Assembly (NCBI GenBank): GCA_019419955.1
Contig: JAHZIB010000001.1
Coordinates: 29,971-93,970, forward strand
Reading direction: 5' to 3'
Length of the DNA: 64,000 nt
Origin: Clostridiales bacterium
GTDB lineage: Bacteria > Bacillota > Clostridia > TANB77 > CAG-508
Every line of letters begins with the position of its first letter. Within the stretch, counting starts at the first letter, position 1. This document shows, piece by piece, positions 6,345-8,075 of the stretch. A program made the translations under genes and the position numbers. The notes below the pieces were generated by a model. The model was given only the letters and a program-made list of their open reading frames with translations. It had not been told where the DNA came from and searched no databases.

Positions 6345-8075
6345 TTATGCTCCATTCCATTTTGGAATATATTTTGCATCTTTTGAAACTAGAGTAATTA
6401 TATTTTTTCCATCAACAACTTTTCTTTCATAAAATTCGCAGTTAGCTAGCAGTATTTTTGTACTTTTTAAACTAAATCTATAATTAAATAAATCTATATC
6501 TTTACTTAAATCAGTTACTATATTTTTATATTTCCTTTCATCATAATCATCAATATAAAATGATGCTTTTATATTGTCTTTTAACTTATAATTTTTATTT
6601 TGACTATCATAATAAATTAAGTTAATTTCAAATTCATTTTGATAGAAATAGTCTAAATTATATTTTATTTTTATATTAAATTTCTTTTCTATATATATAA
6701 TTTTTTGCAAAAGTCTTTTATAATTTTTGAATACCTGATAATCATTCTCATTATAATTTTTATTTCCTAAATTTCTCATAACAAAATACTCTTTATTCTC
6801 CTTAATATGTTGCACACTTACCTTACTATTGCAACTATTAATTGTAAATAAGAATTTTTGTATCTCTAAATTCTCTTTACAAGAATATTTATATTTTTCT
6901 CTTAAAGTTATATTAATATTAGCATTATATTTTATAAAACTATTATCAATATCTCTATGTTCTTCTAGAATGTTTATCTTTAATGTAATATCAAAACATT
7001 CTTCTTTTGCTTCAAAATTATTAAAAATTATATGTTTTTTTTGAACATCTACTACTTGTAAAGCAGTACTTTTTATGCTAAATTTTTCTATTCCATCACT
7101 AATAATTATTTTATATTTTTCTCCTTTTGGAAGTTCTTTAGGAAGAATATATAATTTAATATCACCATCTTTTGCATAGTTACAATCAGAAAATGGATTT
7201 TCATATTTTCCAATATATTCCCTTACTTCTGAAACATAAGGAATTTCAATTGGTCTTCTTTGTATTGTAGCTTCTCTAATCAAATTATTAACCCCTCCAT
7301 TTTTTATAAAATCTTCTTTTTCCTTTGGACTATTAAACTTCATTTTGAACTTTTCTTGCATAGGATGAAGTTCATATGCATTTTCTACTTTTGGGTTTAA
7401 TACATATTTCAATTCTTCACCAACTATCTTCGCTTCAACATTAAAACATTTTCGTAATTCTAATGGTAAATTCGTATTTGTAAGAATTTCTTTTGTTAAT
7501 GCAATTTTTTCTGTATATTCCTTTTCCACTTTTGGTATGTTATTTTTATTCTCAAATACTACATCTAAAGAAATATTATCCTTTATACCAATAACACACC
7601 TTAAAATATTATTTATTTGCTCTTGTTTTACCAGTTCTAAATTCTTAATAATATTTATCAATTCAAAACAAGAATACACGTCATCTTTTAAAGAAAAGTA
7701 GGTTGTATCTATATTATTTTTGGGACTATATTTAATTTTTTCATCAATAACTAAAAACTTTAATCTTCTGTATTCCTTATCTAAATTATTGTCTTTAAAT
7801 TTTTTTAATGTCTCTTTAATTTTTTTTATACTTCTTTCAGAAGTAACTTGAAATGTTATCTGTTTATTTTTATCTCCTAAATCTACTGCTGGATACAAAT
7901 ATTTGTTATTAAGATTTACTAAATCATAATCATATATTATATTTAATATATCTTTAAAGGGTGTTTCTAGTAGAGTATTTATATCATTTAAATTAGCTTT
8001 ATTTTTCAATTTTACTTGATATATAATAATCGATAAATTAGTTGAAATTTCATTAATTATATTTTCTATTTTCAT
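6345..8075 (-). CDS. Hypothetical 576-aa protein, defense-island type (possibly SMEK-like N-terminal domain)
   Basis: No catalytic motif recognised. The N-terminal roughly 100 aa resemble N-domains I recall from abortive-infection and defense-island proteins. Located inside the tRNA-linked island, immediately next to the R-M pair. Confidence 0.6.
   Translation of the reverse strand: MKIENIINEISTNLSIIIYQVKLKNKANLNDINTLLETPFKDILNIIYDYDLVNLNNKYLYPAVDLGDKNKQITFQVTSERSIKKIKETLKKFKDNNLDKEYRRLKFLVIDEKIKYSPKNNIDTTYFSLKDDVYSCFELINIIKNLELVKQEQINNILRCVIGIKDNISLDVVFENKNNIPKVEKEYTEKIALTKEILTNTNLPLELRKCFNVEAKIVGEELKYVLNPKVENAYELHPMQEKFKMKFNSPKEKEDFIKNGGVNNLIREATIQRRPIEIPYVSEVREYIGKYENPFSDCNYAKDGDIKLYILPKELPKGEKYKIIISDGIEKFSIKSTALQVVDVQKKHIIFNNFEAKEECFDITLKINILEEHRDIDNSFIKYNANINITLREKYKYSCKENLEIQKFLFTINSCNSKVSVQHIKENKEYFVMRNLGNKNYNENDYQVFKNYKRLLQKIIYIEKKFNIKIKYNLDYFYQNEFEINLIYYDSQNKNYKLKDNIKASFYIDDYDERKYKNIVTDLSKDIDLFNYRFSLKSTKILLANCEFYERKVVDGKNIITLVSKDAKYIPKWNGA

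Follow-up and report, generated by a model that had tools for sequence, protein, structure and literature searches.

The stretch of DNA analysed here (the window) is 64,000 nucleotides long, and on its minus strand an ORF of 576 codons plus stop, with an ATG start, runs from 8075 down to 6345 directly behind a Type II restriction-modification (R-M) gene pair. The limits are those of the ORF list and its translation, and the product is here called SMEK-C. The features of the gene and its surroundings are:

6345-8075, minus: SMEK-C gene, 576 aa
6348..7598, minus: C-terminal domain (C-domain), aa 160-576, from the predicted structure (pLDDT 88.9)
7461..7640, minus: helical linker, aa 146-205, with AF2 helices 148-161, 170-175 and 180-202
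7647..8051, minus: SMEK_N domain, aa 9-143 (PF21941 E=3.3e-34)
7809..7967, minus: conserved motif block E37-T89 of SMEK_N, from a six-domain alignment
8083-8089, minus: Shine-Dalgarno sequence AAGGAAG, 7 nt 5' of the SMEK-C ATG, read from the sequence
8156-8127: weak promoter-like site before SMEK-C (promoter scan)
8162..8968, minus: Type II restriction endonuclease (REase), TdeIII family (PF09520 E=1.6e-42; PADLOC REase_II)
8984..10117, minus: Dam-family (D12) N6-adenine DNA methyltransferase (PF02086 E=6e-42; TIGR00571 E=1.2e-55)
10176..10314, minus: upstream edge of the conserved three-gene block, from DNA similarity to homologous locus L003
10203-10176, minus: promoter-like TTGACA-16-AATTAT before the methyltransferase block (promoter scan)
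11066..11944, minus: serine recombinase, 292 aa, probably truncated (Resolvase and Recombinase domains; CcrB-like)
12528..12766, minus: two tRNA-Gly(TCC) genes, probable island edge (ARAGORN and Rfam)

The gene and its island

The preliminary description of this DNA had placed a 576-aa gene here, and it is real: there is an ATG-to-stop frame preceded by a Shine-Dalgarno sequence and, as dN/dS among homologues is ~0.25, it is a gene under selection. By simple arithmetic the chance of an open run of 576 codons is ~1e-24, with ~9% stops among random codons at ~22% G+C, and the exact sequence is present on 34 public contigs. The protein has a pI of 8.9 and no transmembrane segments; with a maximum 19-residue hydropathy of 1.05, a transmembrane or pore effector was rejected. 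Neither the sequence nor Pfam reveals a P-loop or NTPase domain, and a PHROGs scan of SMEK-C and its uncharacterised neighbours gave no match.

The TdeIII-family endonuclease gene is directly upstream of SMEK-C in the same orientation, and its product is 90% identical to the L003 copy. The D12 methyltransferase also matches PADLOC MTase_II (E=5.7e-66). DNA similarity between the window and L003 spans 6337-10314 at 80% and ends 8 nt beyond the SMEK-C stop codon, while positions 10210-10308 are conserved in another locus, L012, too. The G+C of the island is 21-25% vs ~30% elsewhere in the window, and the tRNA-Gly(TCC) pair sits in direct repeats of ~122 bp with 82.8% identity. No attachment repeats emerged from comparison of the tRNA side (12380-12640) with the far side (5380-6400), the two having no common word of 11 nt or longer. 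With its TdeIII endonuclease, D12 methyltransferase, serine recombinase and low G+C, the setting is the mobile island with an adjacent R-M pair that had been described. On the 3' side of SMEK-C are 914 bp of non-coding DNA and then a pilin-like gene. A small downstream partner gene, suggested by the 83-aa and 88-aa ORFs downstream in L004 and L005, which by eye have no evident similarity, was considered and rejected, as the 914 bp of the window contain no credible ORF.

The SMEK_N domain and its other settings

A resemblance of the N-terminal region to the SMEK family had been suggested tentatively and is now verified by PF21941 (118.2 bits vs a Pfam cut-off of 27) and by NF033859 (aa 5-98, E=1.3e-24, 85.9 bits vs an NCBIfam cut-off of 30). 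PADLOC adds a match of aa 1-166 to positions 1-172 of the 463 in its profile PDLC02399, Aga_REase-PNTD1-PNTD2 (E=4.4e-31). The abortive-infection (Abi) models of PADLOC and Pfam do not match, PADLOC giving the pAgo-associated REase model only and Pfam SMEK_N only. Pfam, NCBIfam, PHROGs and PADLOC thus matched no non-defence family with confidence.

The same region (aa 7-148) matches, at E=1e-9 to 2e-10, the chain of PDB entry 26bh that its depositors themselves named 'Mrr domain of K. jejudonensis Mrr-APAZ pAgo'. When six SMEK_N domains at 30-39% identity, the 26bh chain among them, are aligned, E37, N45, N54, N56, P62, D65, D68, Q76, T78, S79, K85 and T89 are the same in all. The motif departs from the canonical form, as Q76-x-T78 stands where (D/E)xK is expected; SMEK-C reads D65...Q76-x-T78, and the helix that follows carries a conserved K85. 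The AF2 model gives the order alpha(32-48)-beta(66-68)-beta(73-78)-alpha(83-95)-beta(104-109), which, as modelled, fits a restriction-endonuclease-like core. Pfam did not detect Mrr_cat, whose signature is D...(Q/E)xK, in SMEK-C. Foldseek returned no restriction-endonuclease fold for SMEK_N, and so the fold assignment rests on sequence homology to 26bh and on the literature. Because the pAgo literature treats SMEK_N as an Mrr-like PD-(D/E)xK nuclease domain, the earlier statement that the protein has no identifiable catalytic motif was wrong: from its sequence, SMEK_N is predicted to be a nuclease module of this type, with E37, D65, D68, Q76 and K85 invariant, and SMEK-C itself may then be an active nuclease.

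Judged by the company that it keeps, SMEK_N behaves like an effector head that can be exchanged. APAZ and pAgo accompany it in the PADLOC model and the literature; it is fused to STAND-type NTPase regions in P0012 and P0117, and to TPR repeats elsewhere; and a 316-aa SMEK protein adjoins a DUF2326/LmuB-like ATPase in two unrelated lineages (PADLOC PDC-M68B E=2.5e-49 and 1.7e-40). The loci with such an ATPase beside 316-aa SMEK proteins are L027 and L029-L032, and it is absent from the window, L001, L003, L008 and L009. The L027 protein has a 53%-identical N-domain and then, from a boundary at ~aa 160, a different C-terminus. Plasmid SMEK proteins have recombinases, toxin-antitoxin (TA) systems and type IV secretion (T4SS) genes as neighbours. 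To our knowledge, the experimental link of the SMEK/Mrr-like effector is so far to short Argonautes only. For the SMEK-APAZ/short-pAgo complex of Kordia jejudonensis, a weak collateral activity as a nuclease is reported (PMC12205087, PMC10810196).

That complex offers the closest comparison. Its effector, the partner of KjAgo ('SPARMA', 26bh), has a homologous N-terminal nuclease module with the same E, D, QxTS and K motif, and there too an N-terminal effector is joined to a larger non-catalytic regulatory part (PMC10810196, PMC12205087). In contrast, SMEK-C is without APAZ, its C-terminal 410 residues are unrelated, and it is linked with Type II R-M and not with pAgo; no MID-PIWI or Argonaute gene lies beside it in the window or is listed for L001, L003, L008 and L009. 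PDC-M68, with its Lamassu or ABC-three-component logic, shares the SMEK_N head, AT-rich serine-recombinase islands and the exchange boundary at ~aa 160; however, there an SMC-like ATPase, a protein of its own, is the sensor or motor, whereas SMEK-C lacks an ATPase and has its putative sensor fused in cis.

Mrr is a Type IV restriction enzyme encoded beside hsdRMS in the immigration control region of E. coli, and SMEK-C resembles it in being a predicted Mrr-like PD-(D/E)xK-type nuclease encoded beside R-M. In Mrr a winged-helix reader comes first and the catalytic domain, with D-QxK, last; SMEK-C has the opposite order, and its motif combines D-QxT with a lysine in a helix. PrrC, a latent anticodon nuclease in the EcoprrI Type I R-M locus, is a back-up for when restriction fails. 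As with nucleases of the PrrC and RloC type, SMEK-C (a predicted nuclease) is encoded directly beside R-M, but PrrC has a single Type Ic partner whereas SMEK-C is found beside three kinds of Type II R-M, and no Pfam, NCBIfam or PADLOC match points to an ABC-ATPase or anticodon-nuclease region in it. STAND or Avs-type sensors likewise combine an N-terminal nuclease, here a predicted one, with a large C-terminal recognition part; unlike them, SMEK-C has no NTPase domain or P-loop and its C-domain is smaller and unrelated.

The C-terminal domain and the evolution of the block

For the C-terminal part, a look for a nuclease, NTPase or transmembrane effector had been suggested. The C-domain is predicted with confidence to have a fold for which Foldseek against PDB and BFVD gives nothing at E<=0.001, and it lacks a transmembrane segment. 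There is no Pfam match to the C-domain, and a profile search of PDB sequences was empty. No catalytic residues are conserved in it: the conserved positions are mainly P, G, L, A and I, and the only conserved polar residues are E286, N353 and K407. We propose that it is a sensor or regulatory module. Two faint likenesses were set aside. ATP-grasp proteins (PurK, PylC, CPS) top both Foldseek lists, yet at E=0.07-0.5, probability <=0.13 and TM ~0.1. A LAGLIDADG-like DNA-binding subdomain is noise, the WhiA-LAGLIDADG Pfam match being found in one of 26 family members; its E was 0.01 when aa 311-440 were scanned alone, and PI-SceI is seen in Foldseek at E ~0.4-0.9.

The family that shares the C-domain starts at ~aa 160, stand-alone homologues aligning from ~aa 162 on, and it is rare, with 41 representatives among 1.84 billion proteins. 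Its N-terminal partners would number at least three: the SMEK module, a domain of ~150 aa from conjugative elements and a peptide of ~54 aa with a gene of its own. The C-domain is also found alone or behind a different N-terminal domain, its neighbours then being housekeeping or conjugative-element genes and no R-M; DUF4417, EndoU, Fic, ParA and TraG are next to the SMEK-less relatives in the conjugative element. Because it occurs away from R-M without SMEK, it is not exclusively a defence part.

Full-length SMEK-C homologues, 58-67% identical to the window protein, come from a handful of loci that are all metagenomic. Genome, viral, plasmid and phage collections yielded no full-length relatives, only matches to the N-domain and, from the MAG of an uncultured Clostridia member, a remnant of 134 aa. 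Searches with the N-domain alone or the SMEK_N profile gave mostly fragments, with no SMEK-APAZ sequences among the results. Upstream DNA could be read at five full-length homologous loci, and each has a complete Type II R-M system directly upstream on the same strand; these systems are of three unrelated kinds: Dam methyltransferase with TdeIII endonuclease, Bsp6I endonuclease with C5 methyltransferase, and HTH-C5 methyltransferase with another endonuclease. Overall SMEK-C is directly downstream of Type II R-M in the window and in L001, L002, L003, L008, L009, L018 and L019, and serine recombinases flank L001, L009 and L027. In L012 a KilA-N gene is in place of R-M, and the SMEK gene is reduced to a 134-aa remnant.

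Within lineages dS is alike across the three genes (0.82-0.97 and 0.98-1.54), and so R-M and SMEK-C have been inherited together. At equal dS the amino-acid change in the C-domain is 3-4 times that of the R-M genes (dN 0.23-0.31 vs 0.06-0.12), and identity between homologues is 74-83% for the N-domain and 53-64% for the C-domain. The omega of ~0.3 for the C-domain over a dS of ~0.8-1.0 reflects long-term purifying selection. Within the species, SMEK-C has been disrupted independently at least three times in what is, at 99.9% DNA identity, the same island: in one allele a G-to-T change creates E88*, in another foreign DNA follows nt 946, and in a third aa 129-294 are deleted in frame at a microhomology, TTTTCT. 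Disrupted contigs number ~18 and intact ones ~38. Recurrent knock-outs are to be expected of a costly or toxic gene and are only suggestive of such a cost, as they fit relaxed selection equally well.

A candidate function beside restriction

Because it is directly behind R-M in every relative with readable neighbours, SMEK-C is a credible candidate for an anti-phage or anti-plasmid gene. Its earlier interpretation as a candidate defence gene stands in part: it has no confident non-defence family match, and its association with defence genes recurs in homologues, but the premise of a missing catalytic motif was mistaken and SMEK-less relatives of the C-domain are not beside R-M. We give even chances to the reading in which SMEK-C is a single-protein nuclease effector and sensor that works alongside R-M. 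It would be a soluble conflict protein of two modules, the SMEK domain as effector nuclease and the C-domain of ~410 residues as the sensing or regulatory part, which might restrain the nuclease until oligomerisation or a cue from the invader releases it. Once on, the nuclease could degrade the DNA of the invader or, in an abortive-infection mode, that of the cell itself. As the fixed third gene behind a Type II R-M pair in small serine-recombinase islands, it would form a second line of defence beside restriction. Domain identity, motif residues, linkage to R-M, the pattern of selection and the recurring knock-outs are what the data show, whereas the nuclease activity of SMEK-C, its trigger and any anti-phage or anti-plasmid phenotype are inferred.

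An unlikely alternative is that SMEK-C is a solitary Type IV or Type II-like restriction enzyme, the C-domain directly recognising a DNA sequence or modified base, which the SMEK/Mrr-like domain cuts. Much as Mrr next to hsd in E. coli, it would widen the spectrum of the adjacent R-M system. The Mrr-like nuclease module, the constant adjacency of R-M and the mildly basic, soluble character of the protein are all consistent with this, and the fast change of the C-domain could mirror shifting DNA specificity. However, neither Pfam nor Foldseek finds Mrr_cat or a known DNA-reader fold (winged helix, SRA/PUA/EVE or Mrr_N), and in aa 160-576 they match no winged helix or other known reader of DNA modification. 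The same C-domain also exists without the nuclease and away from R-M, and the gene coexists with m6A and m5C methylases, whose products a modification-dependent enzyme must tolerate.

It is rather unlikely that the gene has no part in host defence and either serves the mobile element (by maintaining it, excluding its rivals or processing DNA) or is a decaying hitch-hiker with R-M cassettes. The relatives in a conjugative element, the recombinase, TA and T4SS neighbours of plasmid SMEK proteins, the frequent nonsense, insertion and deletion alleles and the truncated look of the island recombinase would all fit, but such long-term purifying selection, the recurrence of R-M adjacency in three cassette types and the occurrence of SMEK_N otherwise in recognised defence architectures argue against it.

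A more specific proposal, which we regard as decidedly improbable, is that the C-domain is an undescribed fold family serving as a portable sensor in mobile-element conflicts, its SMEK-fused form being coupled to Type II R-M of any specificity, for instance as a guard that, once restriction is circumvented or blocked, frees a non-specific nuclease. Such a guard of restriction, latent while R-M works and firing when anti-restriction proteins of a phage or plasmid disable it, as with PrrC in EcoprrI, is taken by itself a very doubtful identity. SMEK-C is the last gene of the R-M block with three R-M types, the three genes are co-inherited, and L012, with KilA-N instead of R-M, keeps only a SMEK remnant. 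Against this, the three R-M systems have no common protein for a guard to bind, SMEK-C has no similarity to PrrC or RloC, and L012 is a single case.

Hardly any credence attaches to SMEK-C as the orphan SMEK-APAZ partner of a short prokaryotic Argonaute, its C-domain a diverged APAZ (N-L1-L2), and this identity was rejected: the best PADLOC model is indeed a pAgo-associated REase-PNTD protein and AfAgo-N (N-L1-L2) is among the Foldseek matches, but the former match is confined to the REase part, the latter are noise (E=0.5-0.8, probability 0.09-0.13, TM ~0.2), no SPARTA-, SPARSA- or SPARDA-type APAZ chain is among the listed Foldseek and profile-search matches, and the homologous loci, like the window, have no MID-PIWI gene beside SMEK-C.

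Should the defence reading be wrong, SMEK-C is another uncharacterised accessory gene of Clostridia islands. In either case its C-domain is a clean target for structural and functional work, being confidently predicted, rare and without a PDB or BFVD relative. If SMEK-C does work as an effector and sensor alongside R-M, it would be a compact single-gene nuclease defence that travels third in Type II R-M cassettes of whatever specificity and a concrete case for restriction systems having dedicated back-up partners, and the known uses of the SMEK/Mrr-like effector would be extended to Lamassu-like ATPases and to fusion with a new sensor. Should the C-domain prove to be a portable sensor coupled to R-M, a new generic class of 'R-M back-up' defence would be at hand.

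The SMEK-C gene and its neighbourhood

The 576-aa protein that a preliminary description had set apart as an uncharacterised candidate for defence is encoded by a real gene under selection, here called SMEK-C for its SMEK_N head and its C-terminal domain (C-domain). The gene and its neighbours in the window are listed below.

Features around SMEK-C
Beyond the pilin-like gene, downstream of SMEK-C: ftsY
3973-5430, minus strand: pilin-like gene, 485 aa, downstream of the 914-bp gap
5431-6344: non-coding gap of 914 bp, downstream of SMEK-C and before the pilin-like gene
6345-8075, minus strand: SMEK-C, 576 codons from ATG to stop
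7 nt upstream of the SMEK-C start, minus strand: Shine-Dalgarno sequence AAGGAAG
8162-8968, minus strand: Type II restriction endonuclease (REase), TdeIII family, upstream of SMEK-C on the same strand
8984-10117, minus strand: Dam-family D12 methyltransferase (MTase), 377 aa, upstream of SMEK-C on the same strand
Between this restriction-modification (R-M) pair and the serine recombinase: two small ORFs without assigned identity
11066-11944, minus strand: serine recombinase, 292 aa, upstream of the R-M pair
12528-12601 and 12693-12766, minus strand: two tRNA-Gly(TCC) genes, upstream, the probable island edge
12901-12976, plus strand: tRNA-Trp, adjoining the tRNA-Gly pair

Stops make up about 9% of random codons at the local base composition, so a frame of 576 open codons is not a product of chance; the exact protein is present on 34 public contigs, and dN/dS among homologues is about 0.25-0.3. 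The protein has a pI of 8.9, and no hydrophobic segment was found in it. G+C is 21-25% in the 5-11 kb region around the gene, against about 30% across the remaining window.

The setting beside an R-M pair in a mobile island had been described correctly. The two tRNA-Gly genes sit in direct repeats of about 122 bp (82.8% identity), at which two contigs of the same species (L021 and L022) break; a counterpart of this repeat was sought at the opposite island end and not found. The serine recombinase is probably decayed, and the island may thus be fixed in place. It has Resolvase and Recombinase domains but lacks a coiled coil and a zinc ribbon, and an unrelated ORF of 141 aa overlaps it (region 10693-11944, minus strand). 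The D12 and dam models match aa ~4-80 and aa ~132-377 of the MTase; about 50 aa between the conserved N-terminal motif and the remainder have no match. Neither a credible ORF nor an Rfam match was found in the 914-bp gap, which carries a 24-nt AG/CT microsatellite, (AG)12 at 5677-5700, and a strong promoter-like site, TTGACA-16-TATTAT, at 6148-6121 on the minus strand. The 485-aa protein beyond the gap has an unusual pseudopilin or adhesin architecture, with a prepilin-like N-terminal hydrophobic helix, fn3/Ig-like domains in the middle and a cysteine-rich CxxCxGxG-type C-terminus that gives a weak DnaJ zinc-finger match.

The SMEK_N head and the C-terminal domain

The likeness of the N-terminal region to SMEK domains, proposed tentatively before, was confirmed by HMM searches: Pfam SMEK_N (PF21941) matches aa 9-143 with E=3.3e-34 and NCBIfam NF033859 matches aa 5-98 with E=1.3e-24. 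The PADLOC model 'Aga_REase-PNTD1-PNTD2', which describes an Argonaute-associated REase protein, matches aa 1-166 (E=4.4e-31) through its profile positions 1-172 of 463 only, and aa 7-148 align with PDB chain 26bh (E=1e-9 to 2e-10), which its depositors describe as 'the Mrr domain from Kordia jejudonensis Mrr-APAZ pAgo'. In the pAgo literature SMEK is regarded as an APAZ-fused nuclease domain (PMC10810196), weak collateral DNase activity has been reported for the Kordia SMEK-APAZ/Ago heterodimer (PMC12205087), and one study describes such proteins as restriction endonucleases that were 'misannotated as SMEK' (PMC10318531).

Alignment of six SMEK_N domains, 26bh included (30-39% identity), leaves E37, N45, N54, N56, P62, D65, D68, Q76, T78, S79, K85 and T89 invariant, and the helices (32-48, 83-95) and strands (66-68, 73-78, 104-109) predicted for this region fit an alpha-beta-beta-alpha-beta core of restriction-endonuclease type; the protein thus cannot be said to lack an identifiable catalytic motif. 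This motif departs from the canonical form, having QxT in place of (D/E)xK and a conserved lysine in the following helix. Foldseek returned no endonuclease fold for the N-terminal part, and the putative nuclease fold is assigned from sequence homology and from the naming used by depositors and authors.

SMEK_N recurs with varied partners, and so resembles, in its behaviour, the interchangeable effector heads found in known defence systems. It is fused to STAND-type NTPase regions in two proteins (P0012 and P0117) and also to TPR repeats, and 'SMEK domain-containing protein' is widespread on plasmids, tblastn giving 37 records matched in the N-domain only. A metagenome scan found, at locus L027 (315-3244), a SMEK protein of 316 aa that shares 53% identity with SMEK-C in the N-domain and changes to a different C-terminus at about aa 160; its gene is followed by one for a 581-aa DUF2326 ATPase matching PADLOC PDC-M68B (E=2.5e-49) and Lamassu LmuB, and a large serine recombinase adjoins the pair in an AT-rich, Firmicute-like island. 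The same kind of pair is present in four loci of higher G+C from an apparently unrelated lineage (L029-L032, ~7001-9883), which suggests that SMEK proteins are the effector of a Lamassu-like system.

The C-domain (aa 160-576) is rare, a full-scan HMMER search of 1.84 billion proteins giving only 41 cluster representatives, in three groups: SMEK fusions, stand-alone proteins of 430-450 aa, and ~530-aa proteins that begin with a different region of ~150 aa. No Pfam domain was found in family members. Structure prediction of the C-terminal part, which had been proposed as a route to an effector, yielded a confident fold and no known relative: AlphaFold2 with C-domain alignments gave a pLDDT of 87.6 at full length (C-part >90) and 88.9 for the C-domain alone, and Foldseek against PDB (twice) and BFVD found no match at E<=0.001, the best E-values being 0.07, 0.21 and 0.027 with TM-scores of about 0.1. 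The family profile found nothing among all PDB sequences. Conserved positions are mostly Pro, Gly, Leu, Ala and Ile, with E286, N353 and K407 the only conserved polar residues, which argues for a binding or scaffold role and against an enzyme.

Stand-alone C-domain genes are flanked by housekeeping genes in L014 and L017 and adjoin a recombinase remnant in L004, and they have a conserved ORF of about 54 aa overlapping their start in another frame (L004 143-304; L014 7850-8014; L005 3-83). This ORF, with the pattern MKN..IINF... and ending KKCNI.I, may be a translationally coupled partner or reflect programmed frameshifting. The motif at its C-terminal end is similar to the N-terminus of the main protein. 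The genes for the ~530-aa forms in L007 (8709-11118) and L023 (812-3299) are each divergent to a DUF4417 gene; L007 is a conjugative element that carries TraG, ParA, Fic, EndoU and CHAP genes. As these SMEK-less relatives lie elsewhere, it is only the SMEK fusion that is linked to R-M, and the C-domain is not confined to defence.

Linkage to restriction-modification

Full-length relatives of SMEK-C number only about eight in 5.8 billion clusters, all metagenomic. In every one with readable upstream DNA a complete Type II R-M system stands directly upstream on the same strand, and these systems are of three unrelated kinds.

R-M systems directly upstream of SMEK-C and its full-length relatives
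Window, L003: Dam MTase and TdeIII-type REase
L008, L009: Bsp6I-type REase and C5 MTase, the gap to SMEK-C in L008 being only 17 bp
L001, L002: HTH-C5 MTase and a different REase (PADLOC REase_II, E=1e-65)

In L001 and L002 the R-M system and SMEK-C lie within an island with DUF927 and a serine recombinase; beyond distant serine recombinases, no further gene common to SMEK-C loci was found. The window and L003 share similar DNA from 10314 down to 6337, 8 nt past the SMEK-C stop codon, so MTase, REase and SMEK-C form a discrete block. In L012, a contig of an uncultured Clostridia MAG (CALXUC010000005.1, 8513-10381) and the one relative present in genome collections, blocks homologous to window 12325-12457 and 10210-10308 are side by side; after the promoter-like block come a KilA-N gene, in the place of the R-M system, and then a 134-aa SMEK gene remnant; the promoter-cargo-SMEK layout thus predates the present R-M cargo.

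Nei-Gojobori estimates for paired loci (approximate, dS being near saturation in AT-rich DNA)
Window and L003, MTase: dS 0.88, dN 0.076
Window and L003, REase: dS 0.97, dN 0.058
Window and L003, SMEK-C: dS 0.82, dN 0.205
L008 and L009, REase: dS 1.54, dN 0.102
L008 and L009, MTase: dS 1.15, dN 0.118
L008 and L009, SMEK-C N-domain: dN 0.076
L008 and L009, SMEK-C C-domain: dN 0.306

These estimates indicate that the three genes have been linked since the lineages of each pair split. The C-domain changes 3-4 times faster, yet under purifying selection; homologous proteins are 74-83% identical in the N-domain and 53-64% in the C-domain, and aa 311-440 and 496-576 are the most variable segments.

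Disrupted alleles and the proposed role of SMEK-C

Other samples of the species have the same island at the same chromosomal site, with DNA 99.9% identical, flanking R-M included. SMEK-C is intact in L019, and there are three independent disruptions. In L018 one substitution, G to T at gene position 262 (window 7814), creates the stop E88*, splitting the gene into ORFs of 87 and 444 aa, the 444-aa product being present on six contigs; in L020 foreign sequence follows gene position 946 (window ~7130) up to the contig end; and the allele P0002 has an in-frame deletion of aa 129-294 (166 aa; window 7194-7691) between two TTTTCT words, a microhomology. Disrupted and intact contigs number roughly 18 and 38 (about one-third disrupted), the alleles being drawn from assemblies rather than reads. 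Recurrent inactivation is expected of a costly or toxic gene, and fits relaxed selection too.

It is plausible, at an even chance, that SMEK-C is an effector-plus-sensor nuclease. The domain assignment, the conserved motif, the R-M linkage, the pattern of selection and the disrupted alleles were observed directly; the nuclease activity of SMEK-C, its trigger and its phenotype are inferred. A solitary restriction enzyme reading DNA directly is unlikely. A non-defence function of the mobile element or a decaying hitch-hiker, to be set beside both the disrupted alleles and the purifying selection, we also consider rather unlikely. A PrrC-like guard of the R-M system would stand where SMEK-C stands; it is improbable, the ABC-ATPase and anticodon-nuclease regions of PrrC being absent. 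That SMEK-C is an orphan SMEK-APAZ protein, for all the Argonaute-associated matches of its head, is scarcely credible, as neither APAZ nor an Argonaute neighbour was found.

Scores above both HMM cut-offs, together with the motif, assign SMEK-C to the SMEK-domain family. For PrrC, Mrr proper, known Abi families, Lamassu-like SMEK pairs and the SMEK-APAZ class of pAgo systems, defining features were looked for in SMEK-C or beside it and not found, and it is not classed with any of them; the SMEK_N and C-domain architecture, fixed behind Type II R-M, appears undescribed in the libraries and literature searched. As an effector-plus-sensor nuclease, SMEK-C would recognise a cue or oligomerise through its C-domain, the SMEK nuclease would then degrade DNA, and the gene would accompany Type II R-M cassettes as a second layer of defence.
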